Shown here: positions 9,001-21,000 of the stretch, in pieces
Layout: each line of letters begins with the position of its first letter
How positions within the stretch are numbered: the first letter of the stretch is position 1
Origin: Truepera sp.
GTDB lineage: Bacteria; Deinococcota; Deinococci; Deinococcales; Trueperaceae
NCBI GenBank assembly: GCA_965218435.1
Contig: CBDCKW010000009.1
Span: forward strand, 1,440,001 to 1,504,000
DNA length: 64,000 nt
Direction: 5' to 3'
Program-made: the position numbers

Positions 9001-12000
9001 ATACCGGAACCTCGCATTTGTTCAGCAAAACGGGGTACATTTTTACGCCGGGGTGCCGCTGACGGCTCCTGACGGTGCGGTGCTCGGGACGCTGAGCGTC
9101 TTTGACGCTGTACCCCATACCCCCAAACCGGGTCAGCTCGAGCTTTTAGAAACCCTCGCGCAAACGGTGCTGGAACTGCTCGAGCAGCAGCGTGAAGCTT
9201 TAGCCCGCGCCGAGGCGGTCAAGACCAAAACGCATCTGGGCGAACTGCTCGAGCACGCCCCTTACTACGCCTTTACCGTCTCCGCTGACGGGCGTCTGGA
9301 CTACCTTAACGATACCCTCAAACGGGCGCTGGGTTACCCTTCACCTCCTGAACACTACCGCACGCTCTACGCCGAAAATGCTCAAGACGTGGTGAGAGCC
9401 GCCTTTCATGAAGCCCTCGAGCAAGGGCGAGCTGAGCTCTCTACGACGCTGCAAACAAGGAGTGGCGCACTGATTCCGGTTTCGCAGACGCTAACATGTT
9501 TGGTGCGGGCTGAGGGTGAGGCGGGTTTAGCGGTCGTAGCCTACGACACCTCGGCGCAGCAGCAGCGCGACGCCCTCGAGCAAAAACGCGCTGAGGTGCT
9601 CGAGCTTACCGCCCGCGGCGCACCGCTCCCGGCGGTGCTGCTCGAGCTGCTCAAGCTTTTAGAAACGTCGTGCCGGGGGCTCATCGGCGCGGTGTTTCTC
9701 GTCCATCAAGGGACATTACAGCTCGAGGTCGCGCCGCAACTACCGAGCGCCTTTGCACATATCGTCCGTGAGCTGCCCCTTAGCGCGGTGGCGGCAGCGC
9801 CGGGGGCCGCGGTGCTACGAGGCCAACGGGTCCTCAGCAGCGATATTCGGCGTGACCCGCTCTGGCACCATCAACGCTACTACGCCCTCCAAAACGGGCT
9901 GCAAGCGTGTTGGGCCGAGCCCATTTTAAGCGACCAAAATGAAGGTCTCGGGACCTTTGTGCTTTACGCGAACGAGCCGAAAACGCCGACCGAGACCGAG
10001 GGGCGGCTGTTACGTGAAACCGCCCAGCTAGCCGCCATCGCCGTTTCACGGCAGAAGCTTTACGCGCAGCTCGAGCACCAAGCGCACTACGACGCGCTGA
10101 CCGGCCTGCCCAACCGTAGACTCCTCAGCGAGCATTTAGGGCGCGCCGTGCGGCAGGCCCAAGCTCAACCTGAGCAAGGGGGTGTCGGCGTCTTTTTGCT
10201 CGACCTCGACGACTTTAAGCGGGTCAACGATGCACTTGGTCACGCAGCGGGTGACGCGCTGCTCAGCGCCGTTGCCGGACGACTGCAGACGCATTTGCAA
10301 ACGCAGCTGCCGCCGCGGACCACGCTGGCGCGGAGCGGCGGCGACGAGTTCGTCTTGACCGTGCCCTTAGCCTATCAGGGTGACGCGGCCCGCTTCGCTT
10401 TCGAGCTCGAGCGTACGTTTGCCGCTCCCTTTAGGCTGGGCGAGCGCACGCTCCAAGTCGGGGCCAGCATCGGGGTCAGCCGCTTTCCCGAAGATGCGAA
10501 TACCCCGCAGGCGCTGCTGCAAGCGGCCGACACCGCTATGTACGCCGCTAAAGCCGACCGCCGCGCCGGGTCGGGGCAGAGTTACAGGCTCTACCGGAGT
10601 GAGATGACCGAGCAGCTCGAGGCGCAGCTCAGGCTCGAGGCGGAGCTTAAACGAGGACTCGCACAAGATGAGTTCTGCCTTTTTGTTCAACCTCGTTTCG
10701 ACCTTAAACGGCAGCAGGTGGTGGCCTCCGAAGTGCTCATACGTTGGGCACATCCCCAAAAGGGTTTGCTCTTGCCCGGAGCCTTTTTGGAGGGTGCGCA
10801 GCAAGCCGGACTGTTGCCGCAACTCGACGCGTGGGTGTTGCACCAGGTCACGCGCTACTTAAGCGAAGGCGCAGCGGCCGGTAAACCGGTGCAGCTCTCT
10901 TGCAACGTGTCGGCGGTAAGTTTTCAAGACGCGACCTTTTTGCGTGAGTTAGAGGCGGCTTTAGGCGAAGACCCGGAAGTTTCCAAAGGGCTCGAGCTCG
11001 AGATTACCGAAAGCTTGCTGATGCAAAACTTAGACAGCGTGGCAGCTCGGCTCACCGACCTCAAGGGGCGGTTTCCGGGTATCCGCGTGGCGATTGATGA
11101 CTTTGGCAGCGGCTATTCGTCACTCGCCTACTTGCGTTACCTCCCTATTGATACGCTCAAGATAGACCGGGCGTTCGTCCGTGACCTCGACCATCAGGGC
11201 GGCACCCTCCAAAGGACCGCCCTGGCGGTGATTCGCACCGTGATCGCCCTCGGTCACGACCTCGGCTTTCGGGTCGTCGCCGAGGGCGCTGAGTCTGAAG
11301 GTCAACTTGGGATGCTGACCGCGCTCGGCGCTGACGAAGTGCAGGGTTTTGCTATCGGCAAACCGCAACCGCTGACGCCGTGGTTACATACGGGTGGTTC
11401 CGCTGAGGCGTCGGCGTCCCCAGGTGACCTGTCATAGGTTGTAGCCGGTATCGTCCAGGTAGCAACGTCCGCTTGGCTTTTACCGACCGGCACGCATATT
11501 CTGTGATACCTGTAGCGTAGTAGCCTTGCCCAGAAATGGCAACAGCTGTGCTACCAGTCTCGGGTCACGTCCTCGAGCGCCTTTTCACTGACTTTGGCGT
11601 AGATTGTCGTGGTGGCGATGTTTTTATGCCGCAGATGGGTTTGGGTCCGCCTGAGGTCGCCGGTTTCTTCGTACATCCGGGTTCCCGATTGGTGCCGGAG
11701 AGGATGGAGTGCGCGGTAGTCAACCCCGGCGGCGGCGCAGAGCGCCCGGAGCCGCTGGCGCAGACGTTCGTCGCCGTAGGGGAGAACCTTGCCCGCTCTC
11801 GTTTTACCTTTGCGCCGCACCGTCGTATCGGTTTTGAGCACCTCGAGCGCGGTGACGAGACTTTGAGACAAAGCCACGCTGTCCACGTAGCCACCTTTAC
11901 CCCGAACCTGGAGCCGCTTTGTTTTAAGGTCAACCGTGCGCCACTCGAGCCCTGCCGCTTCATGAGCACGTAACCCGGCGTGGGCGCAGAGCAGGAGTGC

Positions 12001-18000: not shown

Positions 18001-21000
18001 GCTAAGTCCGTACTCGCTTTTGCTCCTAAACCAAACTCATCAATCCGGCGCTGGGCGGCTTCTCTTTGCAAGTCCACGACCGCAATCACGTCAACCTCTT
18101 CAGCTTTGACACCCGGCAGCCACGCCCCGGCGATGCCCCCGGCTCCGACGATGACAACTCGGGGACGGCCTTTAACCACGTACCACGCCCTGGTTCTCGG
18201 CAACGGAAAGTTTTCTTTTCGATGAGTTTAGGAGGTTGGCGCACTGAAAAACAGGCGCAACGACGAGCGTCTCCTTAACTAAATCTTTTTTTGAACAAAG
18301 CTCGAAAGTAAACGACTCACCCGGTAGCAGCGTTACGAGTTGGTCGCTGACCGTCGCGTCCGGGTCTAACCTGTCAATAAAAATAGCGACGTCGCGGAGC
18401 AAGGTTTTAGCTGTCAGGGTCAAGGTGTAAAGGTCGCCGTCACGTGCCAACTTTGCCTCAACCTGCACGTCGGGATACTGGAGGTTCTTGTCCCGCTCAA
18501 AAAACCACAGCGCCCGCTCTTGACCGACCTGGGCGACGATGAGTTCGGCTCGAGAATCGTCCGGCGTACTTAGGGTAGCGGGAAGCTCGAGCACGCCCTG
18601 GGTCGTCCGCTTAGGAACGTCTATCCTTAGACTCTCCGCAGCTAAGACCTCACCCGCAAAACTCACCCGCCGCAGCGTGACCTCCCCCGTCCACACCTCA
18701 TCGCTGTCGTTACAGGCAAAGAGCACGAGCTTGCCGCCGCGCGGCTGAACGCTCAAGAGTCTATCGGCGTAAAACCGTTTGGTGGCGTACCAAAAGGGCT
18801 TTTTACGCCCGTACCCGTCTACCGCCGCCCAACTCGTCACCGGCCAGCAGTCGTTGAGCTGCCAGTAGAGCGTACCCATACAGGTCGGCTGATGGCTGCG
18901 CCAGTGCGTCACGCCGTATTCAACCGCGCGAGCTTGGTTGAGCTGTGTGGCGTAGAGCCAAGCGTCAAAGTTTTGCGGCTCGGGAAAGTACTCGAGCAAC
19001 CTGTCCAGCAGCTTCTGATTGCCGTCAACCGCCTTTTGGTGATGCAGCATCCCTGGTGAATCGGGTTTTATGGGCCGCTCGCTCAACGACGCGGCCAGAG
19101 TTGCGTAGGTCGCGGGAGCTTGATGCCCGAATTCGGAGACGAAGCGCGGCACGTAAGCGCGGTAAACGTCGTAGTCGAGCGTGTTCCAGGCGTCCCAGAT
19201 GTGTTTGTTGCCGTGGTTGTCGGCCAGCGGGTGAATGTCAAACGAACCCGAGTAGGGGCTACCCGGCCAGTAAGGGCGGGTCGGATCGAGTTCGGCAACG
19301 ATACGGGGCAGCAGCTCCAAGTAGTACCCTTGGCCCCACGTACGCCCCTCGAGTTTTTCTTGCCAGCCCCACGAAAAGTAACCCCAGATGTTCTCGTTGT
19401 TGCCGTCCCACAAGACCAAACTCGGGTGCGAACTCAGCCGCGTGACCTGATAACGCGCTTCGGCCTCGAGCTCGCTCCAAAACGGCTCCTCTTCCGGGTA
19501 GGCGGCGCAAGCGAACAAAAAGTCTTGCCAGACGAGGATACCCAGCTCATCGCAAACCTCAAAGAACGCTTCTTGCTCGTACAAACCGCCGCCCCAGACG
19601 CGGAGCATGTTCATGTTCGCTTCGAGGGCTTGCGTGATGCGTTCGCGGTAACGCGCCTTAGTGATACGCGTGGGAAAGCAGTCGTCGGGAATCCAGTTCG
19701 CGCCCTTGATAAAGATGGGTTTATGGTTGATTTTTACCGTGAAAGCCGAGCCGATAGGGTCTACCGAAGTATCCAACTCGGTTTTGCGAACGCCGATGCG
19801 CTTAGTCCGTCGGTCAAGAGCCGCGTCGCCCTGTGTGAGCGTCAAGGTGAGATCGTAAAGCGGCTGCTCACCGTGGCCGACGGGCCACCAGAGGTCGGGG
19901 TTGTCCAGCTCGAGTTCAAACACCGCCTCGGTCTGTCCCGCAATCACCTCGACTGTCGTCTGCACCCCGGCAAGCTCCGCCGTAAGTTGCGCCGCGCCGG
20001 TACCGGTAGTCCAGTCGAGTTCGGCGTGAAGTTCGACTCGAGCCTTCAATAGGTCGTCGTTGAGATAGACGAGCGGGCGCACCGCCCCGAGCCGCGCCCC
20101 GCTCCAAGCTTCTAGATAGAGCGGCTGCCAGATGCCCGCAGTGGTCAGCGCCGGACCCCAGTCCCAACCGAAGTTACACGCCATCTTGCGGATGAAGTTA
20201 AACGGCGCGTCAGGGTAAGCGTTCGGCAGATCGCCGTGCTCGTCGCGCACGCCCTCAGCGTAGGTTACGGGCGCAGCGAAGGTAATGCTGAGGACGTTCT
20301 CCCCTGCCTTAACCAGCGGTTTGATATCAAACCGGTACGCGCGGTGCATATTTTTGGTTTCCGCGACCACTTGGCCGTTCAGCTTAACGCGGGCCACGGT
20401 GTCCAAACCGAGACAGACCAGCTCGAGCCGGTCGTGATCCAACTGTGCAGCGGTAAGCTCGAGCTGCGTCTCAAAACGCCAGTCGGTACGCCCAATCCAC
20501 TGCAACTCGTTTTCGTTTTGGCCTAAGTAAGGGTCGGGGATAAGACCTTGGGCGAGCAGGTCGGTGTGAACGCACCCCGGTACGGTGGCGGGAATAAGCT
20601 GACCCTTGATGGCTCCCGGTACGTGCCCCAGGTCGCCCACGGCCTGAAGCGTCCACGACTGGTTACTTAGCGACTGGTTAAGCGGGTATTGATTCATAGG
20701 GCTTCCTTATTTCGCTAGTTTGAACGCGAGGTCTCGGGCTAGAGGAGGTAACGTGAGCGTCAACCTGCCAGCTGCAACCTGCACCGTCTCTTTGCCCGTC
20801 CAGGTCGCCGTTTGCGGGTCGTAGCTTTGGAGCGTATAACGCCCGTCCGTGAGTCCGCTTAACGTGACACTTTGACCTGAAACAGCTTTGGGTTCGTAGC
20901 GCCAAGCCGCGCCGGGCAAGGTGCCGCCGCGCAGCACCTCGGTATAGGCGTCCGACGCCGCTTGCGCCGTGTACTCGCCCCCGCGTACCCAGAGGAGGGC

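Follow-up and report, generated by a model that had tools for sequence, protein, structure and literature searches.

To our knowledge, three KOPS-type words have been proven so far. KOPS GGGNAGGG (E. coli, V. cholerae, P. aeruginosa) and SRS GAGNAGGG (B. subtilis) (PMC3384302) share a GGG-N-AG or G-R-G-N-A-G core with RGGGGAGA, the octamer analyzed here on a Truepera chromosome, and the words are alike in being G-rich octamers with about 89% skew, about one copy per 11-15 kb and a switch at dif. For SRS the polarity change near the origin reportedly lies at some distance from the origin itself (PMC3384302), as it does for RGGGGAGA. Compared with KOPS, RGGGGAGA is shifted in register by one base, has a purine before GGG and ends in AGA; after GGG it has G (A weaker), whereas KOPS has N. 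The L. lactis KOPS GAAGAAG (PMC3384302) is also a lineage-specific word with a single-recombinase dif; unlike RGGGGAGA it is an A-rich heptamer, and it is without skew here (275:295).

XerS/difSL, XerH/difH (PMC5357621) and XerL/dif of Legionellales (PMC9765430) have one recombinase and near-palindromic arms, as here, and like the Deinococcales system were overlooked by XerCD-based searches. In XerS and XerH the site lies beside the gene as a module, as it does here. However, difSL is 31 bp with an 11-bp centre whereas the candidate Deinococcales site is 28 bp (11-6-11), and in Deinococcales, unlike these three systems, site sequence and recombinase clade vary inside one genus. AIMS (Hendrickson and Lawrence; PMC5993296) are strand-biased octamers rising toward the terminus, like RGGGGAGA; the main text of PMC5993296 has no mention of Deinococcus, Thermus or RGGGGAGA. 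A 2026 study of D. radiodurans could identify neither a polar KOPS pattern nor a dif site ('not detected'; main text and Supplementary Data 2c of PMC13342612). An FtsK study in that species, dealing with the same organism group and motor, took the E. coli word as given and proposed as KOPS the borrowed GGGCAGGG, which D. radiodurans FtsK binds in vitro (PMC9764985). The order-wide word and dif-like site described below look like the chromosome-segregation signals not found earlier in Deinococcus and relatives.

Polarity of RGGGGAGA on the chromosome

Contig C9 (3,944,606 bp) is the chromosomal sequence in which RGGGGAGA was counted, and it carries 126 plus-strand and 130 minus-strand copies. 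With the two switches placed at 1.456 Mb and parAB (3.386 Mb), 228/256 copies point toward the terminus; setting the origin-side switch at the DnaA-box cluster (3,381,388-573) moves three copies to the other class and recovers the 225/256 leading copies of an earlier note on this DNA. Cumulative polarity had an amplitude of 100; the largest value reached in 20,000 label shuffles was 41. Recounting also returned AGGGGAGA (127:12) and GGGGGAGA (101:16) as the two most skewed among all 8-mers on both arms. Under an order-2 Markov model RGGGGAGA is over-represented 3-5x (AGGGGAGA 127 vs 27 expected, GGGGGAGA 101 vs 34), and the reverse complements are rarer than expected (12 vs 27 and 16 vs 32). 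The criteria for a KOPS or SRS are over-representation, more than 75% of copies on one strand genome-wide and, over the 7% of the chromosome surrounding dif, a density of one copy per 40 kb or more; here the values are 228/256 and one per 11 kb. The dif region alone gives 22:3, or 22/25 (88%), slightly below the 90% used in PMC3384302 (AGGGGAGA 13/14, GGGGGAGA 9/11).

Single-base changes nearly erase the skew except at R1 and for G5>A, and RGGGAAGA is skewed too (81:30). Recounts of YGGGGAGA (86/164) and GAGAAGGG (17:28) gave the figures already noted. The E. coli-type word GGGNAGGG had been set apart as unskewed here, which stands (226:195 genome-wide, 16:18 near dif); its separateness from RGGGGAGA does not, given the common GGG-N-AG core.

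Polarity was said to be independent of gene direction, and this holds, with 96 leading copies sense, 100 antisense and 32 beyond called genes; the earlier 98 and 109 differ because gene calling differs. By crude gene calling 1654/3344 genes are leading, the 49% reported before. Leading copies show a frame preference (sense 66/96 in one frame, antisense 62/100 in one). The reported rise toward the terminus was also seen: leading density falls from 8.0 per 100 kb at dif to 3.8 at the origin, so that dif-proximal density is about twofold, and lagging density is flat along the arm (0.4-1.0 per 100 kb). GC skew of C9 is about 1%, with its cumulative maximum at 1,455,674 and minimum at dnaA (3,382,201).

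The polarity flips within the window, the whole 64,000-nucleotide stretch of C9 that was analyzed, over the interval given in the earlier note; it spans 8.5 kb, 0.2% of C9. Window features are as follows.

5349..6578, plus: two more RGGGGAGA copies (5349, 6571), toward the site
11551..12546, minus: Xer-like tyrosine recombinase gene, 331 aa (Pfam Phage_integrase 1e-19, Phage_int_SAM_1)
11778..11785, plus: final plus-strand RGGGGAGA ahead of the site; it lies antisense within the recombinase gene and points toward the site
12580..12607, minus: candidate dif, 11-6-11, ATTTTGGAGAA CGAACA TTCTCACTACA, kept in four related loci
13660..13687, minus: degenerate second site, left arm perfect, spacer different, right arm decayed
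13917..13938, minus: third, weaker look-alike, spacer CGAACA retained, 6 mismatches in 22; may be a chance match
15674, no strand: cumulative GC skew maximum of the contig, 3 kb from the site
20298..20305, minus: first minus-strand RGGGGAGA past the site, toward the site
28127..51943, minus: RGGGGAGA at 28127, 49537 and 51936, toward the site
46684, plus: one discordant RGGGGAGA

Near the origin, the second switch was placed earlier at parAB, and our analysis agrees: the word diverges at parAB/parS and not at oriC, tracking parAB and not the GC-skew minimum at dnaA. Between oriC, inferred from DnaA-box clusters, and parB, 29/32 copies point toward oriC (18/18 in 11 f1 genomes, 11/14 in 7 f2 genomes). 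A ParB scan of contigs, in which none of the 80 loci was titled Deinococcales, was not used.

The candidate dif site and its recombinase

The switch had been assigned to the Xer-like gene. The region is right; the exact target is not, as the word converges on the upstream site and the last plus-strand copy lies within the gene. The 28-bp candidate lies in the flip interval, 34-61 bp upstream of the recombinase start, and as predicted from sequence it is a candidate dif: it has 11-bp arms and a partial dyad around 6 bp, is non-coding and near the GC-skew switch, and occurs as a single full copy on the chromosome. In the four related loci it has the same orientation in one and is inverted in three. 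The degenerate second site is a direct repeat of the main site, 1.1 kb away; the two flank a 242-aa ORF without Pfam match in DNA of 44-51% GC, and the second may be a relic of insertion at dif. A consensus scan rejected the main site as a sigma-70 promoter or terminator.

The recombinase carries R193, K217, H281-x-x-R284, H307 and Y316, which we take to be the catalytic set. Its scores are far under the curated cut-offs for XerC (77/335 bits), XerD (61/330), archaeal XerA (75/220) and XerS (50/267), and its site is 11-6-11 and not 31 bp. Among 11 recombinases of this genome (the window's and 10 others), none passed the curated cut-off for XerC or XerD, and none of the 10 others passed that for archaeal XerA. 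Homologs occur in 119/188 genomes of the order (E<=1e-36). A palindrome was found within 200 bp upstream at 17/30 homolog loci, with no clear one at 13/30, and 22/41 loci had no clear palindrome within 500 bp upstream. As in XerS/difSL, the site adjoins a single recombinase gene.

One alternative accepts the word as KOPS and takes the recombinase and palindrome for a mobile-element integrase with its attachment or autoregulatory site, which tend to lie at the terminus. Homologs with their own palindromes do occur on plasmids (C6, C5, MP1) or off the terminus (G206, 2.558 Mb), the cassettes are without vertical inheritance (the 39-row tree being a quick tree), DNA around the site is low in GC, and on G107 C1 and D. 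radiodurans chromosome II no family member directly adjoins the candidate site. We nevertheless consider this reading unlikely, since in 46/93 genomes of family f2 a single site, nearly invariant, keeps its spacing within intact housekeeping context, the word converges on a site of 11-6-11 layout, no other XerC/XerD was found, and plasmid contig C8 carries the same arms with spacer CCACAA and no called recombinase gene. The MP1 recombinase has just three word copies nearby, all on one side. Because contig C2 duplicates part of C5 at 98.7-99.8% identity, the motif pattern on C2 was not counted as separate evidence. G206, an apparent counter-example among the matches listed, is a scaffold with N gaps; its parB is at 1.477 Mb, and its two cassettes lie at 2.558 and 3.582 Mb.

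An order-wide word and the proposed system

Each of the four Deinococcales families tested had genomes in which RGGGGAGA is polar; the genomes compared are kin, so counts are not independent. Complete lists gave 66/78 AGGGGAGA copies in G001 and 32/42 copies in G016, and a 10-mer subset gave 38/46 in G107 C1 and 41/44 in G113. Further counts were 45/57 (G042), 19/24 (G038), 74/95 (G008) and, among the matches listed, 60/69 (G059); counts from the first 100 matches can be biased, as forward-strand matches come first. Polarity switches at the candidate site here, in G001, G016, G025, G034, G036, G042, G113 and G120, and in 17 Deinococcus loci. In G113, G120 and G042 a divergent recombinase was located by way of the flip, and upstream of it lies an 11-6-11 palindrome. 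In 20 loci chosen by recombinase homology alone, copies run 47:2 toward the cassette. Copies converge 87:8 on Xer-dif cassettes in the 17 Deinococcus loci, where the background is C-rich (GGGG 1841 vs CCCC 2886). Weaker cases, both among the matches listed, are G034, where the right side of the site has 9 plus and 15 minus copies, and G178 of the Thermaceae-like genus g35, which is barely polar (forward copies: 60 in its first half and 48 in its second). In G059 the flip lies 31-37 kb off the recombinase, and a clean site was not found.

On the D. radiodurans chromosome II record (NZ_OV024759.1), RGGGGAGA is 40/46 polar, whereas GGGCAGGG is not polar, with 14 forward and 15 reverse copies in the first 65 kb and 32 vs 31 forward copies on the two arms. 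A candidate dif predicted from its sequence is TTCTTACCTAA GGCCGC TTATGGATAAA at 65,088. Within the flip interval an integrase is annotated (66,384-67,208), which the recombinase queries did not match. The closest recombinase homolog (35,029) was rejected as its partner, having no upstream palindrome and lying off the flip.

The host has an FtsK with a gamma domain, and 59/61 genomes have one FtsK-gamma. Its recognition helix is near-invariant, SVSRLQRRL[SQ][VI]GHARAGKL in 31/31 read, and differs from that of P. aeruginosa (IGYNRAAR): GHARAGK here, GYNRAAR in KOPS hosts.

Very probably RGGGGAGA, with the weaker RGGGAAGA, is the KOPS of the whole Deinococcales, acting with a single-recombinase dif system. 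The reading as an FtsK-orienting motif, proposed before for this lineage, is supported, and its restriction to the lineage gives way to an order-wide trait; it is strengthened by the convergence target, order-wide conservation, the density gradient and the evidence against Chi. On the model of E. coli, B. subtilis and L. lactis, septal FtsK would bind RGGGGAGA through its gamma domains, which would load the hexamer in one direction. The motor would then pump trapped DNA until the dif-like site, where FtsK would activate the single recombinase on both arms, leading to dimer resolution. The FtsK recognition set may be wider than RGGGGAGA, since GGGCAGGG is bound in vitro and some lineages show a skew of GGGNAGGG near dif (100:37 over 34 loci; moderate, 61:29, in Deinococcus).

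It is also very probable that the whole order shares one unchanging word and FtsK-gamma, while the recombinase-site cassette varies by lineage and has been swapped with secondary replicons. We put forward more tentatively, at a little under even confidence, the full scheme in which a fixed KOPS/FtsK-gamma works with single-Xer/dif cassettes that are interchangeable and exchanged via plasmids, each replicon has one such cassette, and polarity is set from parS and not oriC. If true, FtsK activates unrelated recombinases without co-evolved contact, and KOPS and dif candidates are supplied for D. radiodurans, where none could be found. Word, sites and recombinase family are now named for the whole order, all as candidates; the order includes a model of extreme double-strand-break repair, in which chromosome dimers should be frequent. 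The KOPS/dif question in Deinococcus becomes experimentally testable, divergent Xer-dif pairs under one invariant FtsK-gamma form a natural series, and RGGGGAGA could mark terminus and centromere in genomes nearly without GC skew.

Other readings of the word

RGGGGAGA could instead be where another polar DNA protein binds or stops (a fork trap, a condensin/SMC regulator or a HerA-like second translocase). The evidence for the word is all positional, divergence at parS also fits an SMC-related signal, and skewed octamers need not be KOPS: among four L. lactis AIMS candidates, one showed weak FtsK binding and the other three showed none (PMC3384302). This reading is improbable: RGGGGAGA resembles two proven FtsK-family words, its copies converge to within a few kb of dif-like sites in different families, and FtsK-gamma is invariant to match.

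A Chi-type signal for a RecBCD/AddAB-like helicase-nuclease, with the switch near the recombinase just marking the terminus, is considerably less probable still. Chi sites are also over-represented and skewed to the leading strand (PMC3384302). C9 encodes an AddA-like 904-aa UvrD plus PD-(D/E)XK protein (3,359,875-3,362,589) beside a 772-aa NTPase-like one, and PDDEXK_1 occurs in 140/188 genomes. However, a RecC domain was found in 1/188 genomes, and PDDEXK_1 was not found in 47/93 f2 genomes or in the D. radiodurans control. The word is thus polar where no such helicase-nuclease was found, PDDEXK_1 being missing from G062, G071, G085, G107, G113 and the chromosome II record. Density doubles toward dif, and the copies between oriC and parB are oriented wrongly for a signal that follows replication from oriC. 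Chi words of other bacteria are unskewed or weakly skewed here (0.49-0.58).

Divergence at parAB/parS and persistence without RecBCD/AddAB argue against both Chi and mutational skew. That mutational strand bias and codon usage make the skew, with no function, is scarcely credible: GC skew changes sign close to both switches of the word and leading copies prefer one frame, but that skew is about 1%, one-base neighbour words are unskewed (which refutes the idea unless the mutation process is highly word-specific), sense and antisense copies are skewed alike, the origin switch lies at parAB, and near Deinococcus dif the word opposes the local G/C skew.

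Polarity of the word and the terminal cassette

Contig C9, which carries the window, is 3.94 Mb of a 4.8-Mb genome in nine contigs and has 126 copies of RGGGGAGA on the plus strand and 130 on the minus strand. With 1.456 Mb and parAB as the boundaries of the arms, 228 of the 256 copies pointed toward the terminus; cutting at oriC reproduced the 225 polar copies counted in an earlier note. The polarity walk had an amplitude of 100, against a maximum of 41 among 20,000 shuffles, and the GC skew of the chromosome is only about 1%. The earlier note had also claimed that no 8-mer is more skewed than the two octamers on either replichore, that their skew holds whatever the gene direction and that they are denser near the terminus, and all of this was borne out. 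The octamer counts on the two arms were 65:8 and 62:4, and 50:9 and 51:7. Terminus-ward copies were 96 sense, 100 antisense and 32 outside genes, and genes were 49% leading, the same figure as before; these new counts used our own crude gene caller. Leading density fell from 8.0 per 100 kb at the terminus to 3.8 at the origin. Compared with an order-2 Markov model, leading copies were over-represented 3-5-fold and lagging copies were halved. A substitution scan revealed a sharp word: changing position 1 to C or T, or making any change at positions 2, 3, 4 or 6, gave 42-55%, positions 7 and 8 tolerated little change (47-66%) and only G5>A retained a clear skew (81:30).

The terminal switch in polarity (the flip) occupies window positions 11785-20298, 0.2% of C9.

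Features at the terminal flip (window coordinates)
11551-12546, minus strand: tyrosine recombinase gene, 331 aa, inside the flip interval
12607-12580, minus strand: candidate 28-bp dif site ATTTTGGAGAA CGAACA TTCTCACTACA, 34-61 bp upstream of the recombinase gene

The site matches the dif layout of two 11-bp arms around 6 bp, as described in PMC5357621. The chromosome holds a single full copy of it, 3 kb from the GC-skew maximum. In the four closest relatives the site is conserved and its flanks are not; its orientation is the same in one and inverted in three, and in one of the four the centre is 7 bp. The closest named relatives of the recombinase are Truepera and Trueperaceae records. It fell below the curated cut-offs of XerC, XerD, XerS and XerA, and none of 10 other recombinases scanned (of 23 Pfam matches in this genome) passes the curated Xer cut-offs. 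Gene and site are adjacent, many relatives have palindromic arms and no XerC/XerD was found among the recombinases scanned; from this we infer that one recombinase serves both arms.

Window 12580-13938 holds, besides the main site, a decayed direct repeat of it 1.1 kb off and a third, weaker look-alike; together they flank ORFs that are low in GC and have no Pfam match, possibly a relic of elements inserted at dif.

Polarity and recombinase sites across the order

Families f1 (that of the window) to f5 make up one order; named matches of an f2 protein identify f2 as Deinococcaceae. Lists of more than 100 matches favour the forward strand, so polarity was counted on complete match lists unless stated, and the counts across genomes overstate independence because kin share copies. 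At 20 loci picked by recombinase homology alone, 47 copies pointed toward the cassette (recombinase gene and adjoining candidate dif site) and 2 away; all 34 terminal loci, some picked by flip, gave 103:6. Seventeen Deinococcus loci, named or MAG and partly of the same lineages, gave 87:8, with GGGGAGA as the top 7-mer de novo; in the local background C runs point to dif and G runs do not.

Among individual genomes, polar copies numbered 66 of 78 in G001 and 32 of 42 in G016, where both flips bracket the cassettes, 38 of 46 on contig C1 of G107, 41 of 44 in G113 (10-mer subset) and, in f3, 45 of 57 in G042. With the arm cut picked from the motif itself, they numbered 19 of 24 in G038 (f3), 74 of 95 in G008 and, in G059 (f4), 60 of the 69 matches listed (71 in total). 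G036 gave 46:6 on the arm with a complete match list, and its flip, like that of G025, lies at a recombinase. The flip of G059 is 31-37 kb from its recombinase, polarity is weak on one side in G034, and G178 (genus g35) is barely polar, with 60 listed forward copies in one half against 48 in the other and an unmapped origin. Chromosome II of D. radiodurans (NZ_OV024759.1) was polar at 40 of 46 copies, converging between 59,981 and 68,917; the best palindrome in this zone, TTCTTACCTAA GGCCGC TTATGGATAAA at 65,088, lies 1.3 kb from an annotated integrase. Within the flip interval of G107 C1 lies a site whose left arm is the same and whose spacer differs, and no member of the recombinase family was found within the 60 kb examined.

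Clear 11-6-11 palindromes were found within 200 bp upstream of homologous genes at 17 of 30 loci, for example AAACCTGATAA CTCGTC TTATCAG in several f1 genera. No clear palindrome appeared at 13 of 30 loci in one homolog set and 22 of 41 in another; these loci include a whole group of Trueperaceae-type homologs. Deinococcus has a near-invariant upstream site, TCCGTTGATAA KGCATG TTATCATCGGA, whose consensus, with up to 3 mismatches allowed, was present in 46/93 f2, 0/32 f1, 0/8 f3 and 1/54 f4 genomes. Divergent recombinases (27-32% identity) with upstream palindromes were located via the flip in G113, G120 and G042.

An N-terminal extension marks recombinases of 455-476 aa encoded on the secondary replicon C5 (152,086-153,477), by the terminal gene of G001 and in G206 (3.582 Mb). 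For the C5 protein, a test matched this extension to the C-terminal part of sigma factors of the RpoS type, and these long proteins are predicted to be a helix-turn-helix fused to Xer. In the match lists of G001 and G036, several close inverted AGGGGAGA pairs lie 11-19 bp apart (for example 14,680 plus / 14,695 minus in G001; 395,030 / 395,041 in G036); they are probably terminator or repeat hairpins and explain part of the discordant copies.

The switch at parAB and the Chi alternative

The putative oriC is the cluster of DnaA boxes found between dnaA and dnaN (3,381,388-573). Two perfect palindromes of the parS consensus lie at 3,384,981 and 3,387,197 of C9. The second switch, placed by the earlier note at parAB near the origin, indeed falls at parA/parB, flanked by these palindromes and 4-5 kb from oriC. 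Among the parB regions of 30 relatives, those with a cluster of at least 4 boxes (11/20 in f1, 7/10 in f2) were counted: 18/18 f1 and 11/14 f2 copies between oriC and parB pointed toward oriC, opposite to fork movement and away from parAB, and the direction was the same in two genomes with oriC on the other side of parB. This evidence is moderate since many of the counted copies occupy homologous positions, in f1 about seven separate ones. On C5 the word likewise diverges at parA/parB, 3-5 kb from the Rep3 gene. An off-origin switch is also described for the B. subtilis SRS in the Methods of PMC3384302.

On contig C3, a dense RGGGRAGA cluster (27,433-37,575; four minus, then seven plus) diverges just ahead of an ORF of 360 aa that has no Pfam match and of a parA gene; it may mark a plasmid origin or centromere.

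The word is unlikely to be a Chi signal. Although an AddA/AddB-type nuclease domain occurs in 140 of 188 genomes, including an AddA-like gene in the genome studied here, it was not found in 47 of 93 f2 genomes nor in the D. radiodurans control, yet RGGGGAGA remains polar there; the switch centred on parS and the rise in density toward the terminus also argue against Chi, and a RecC domain occurs in only 1 of 188 genomes. This sole RecC domain (G025, C1 141,410-142,330) was likely acquired. One run at C9 3,359,875-3,365,677, comprising an AddA-like helicase-nuclease, a metallophosphoesterase and a 772-aa NTPase-like gene, is possibly a divergent AddAB.

FtsK, probable cassette exchange and plasmids

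One FtsK with a gamma domain was found in 59 of 61 genomes, and the helix SVSRLQRRL[SQ][VI]GHARAGKL was common to all 31 sequences examined, from four families. Unlike the Deinococcales GHARAGKL, P. aeruginosa structures have IGYNRAAR at the corresponding position, and the matching Asn is a KOPS contact according to PMC9764985. The fixed, altered helix matches the fixed, altered word, as a correlation only. Beyond the observed polarity, both switch points, site, gene and their conservation, analogy to known FtsK systems makes it probable that FtsK acts on this word: its gamma domains would read RGGGGAGA, the motor would be loaded facing the terminus, and FtsK would activate the recombinase at the site, splitting dimers.

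The word would constitute a fourth KOPS-type word, order-wide, and the sites would add one more dif family served by a single recombinase. Together they would fill a published gap: PMC13342612 reports that neither a polar KOPS pattern nor dif could be found in D. radiodurans. PMC9764985 proposes KOPS GGGCAGGG and mentions putative dif sites, which could affect how new the present sites are; the main text of PMC3025954 contains neither 'Deinococcus' nor 'Thermus'. This word and these sites were not found in the literature searched, which covers few subscription papers and includes PMC5993296, PMC11758949 and PMC9765430. AGGGGAGA was absent from the 25 literature matches listed of 55, and GGGGAGA combined with FtsK gave only literature unrelated by title.

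The terminal recombinase of G001, of the same genus as the genome studied here, groups with the C5 recombinase (98/96), and that of the window with G034 of another genus (100/99). A single clade of the six genus-g1 terminal proteins, a group named after seeing an earlier tree, was rejected (p-AU 3e-6; 14 rows). The G001 and C5 sites have the ACCTAA-N6-TTA arm type in common, and around the C5 cassette there is local convergence of the word (152,003 plus, 153,237 minus). These findings suggest that the terminal cassette was replaced, whichever way the exchange ran.

Plasmid contig C8 carries the arms of the chromosomal candidate dif with a different spacer (4,613-4,640), no recombinase gene was called on it and its replication protein is of the Toprim/helicase type; this plasmid may borrow the host recombinase. 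C8 is a 10.5-kb unit assembled 2 times, plasmid C6 is assembled about 1.6 times, and C2 repeats C5 175.6-226.7 kb (assembly redundancy). Copies of the candidate dif's 12-bp left arm are concentrated on the 685-kb C5, which has 8 near-exact ones (11.7 per Mb vs 0.5 per Mb on the chromosome).

Left-arm copies on C5
82,838; 356,170; 394,919; 482,518-488,199; 532,954-535,267; 649,015

Four of these copies lie inside 6 kb and some have decayed right arms; the copies resemble plasmid dif-flanked gene modules.
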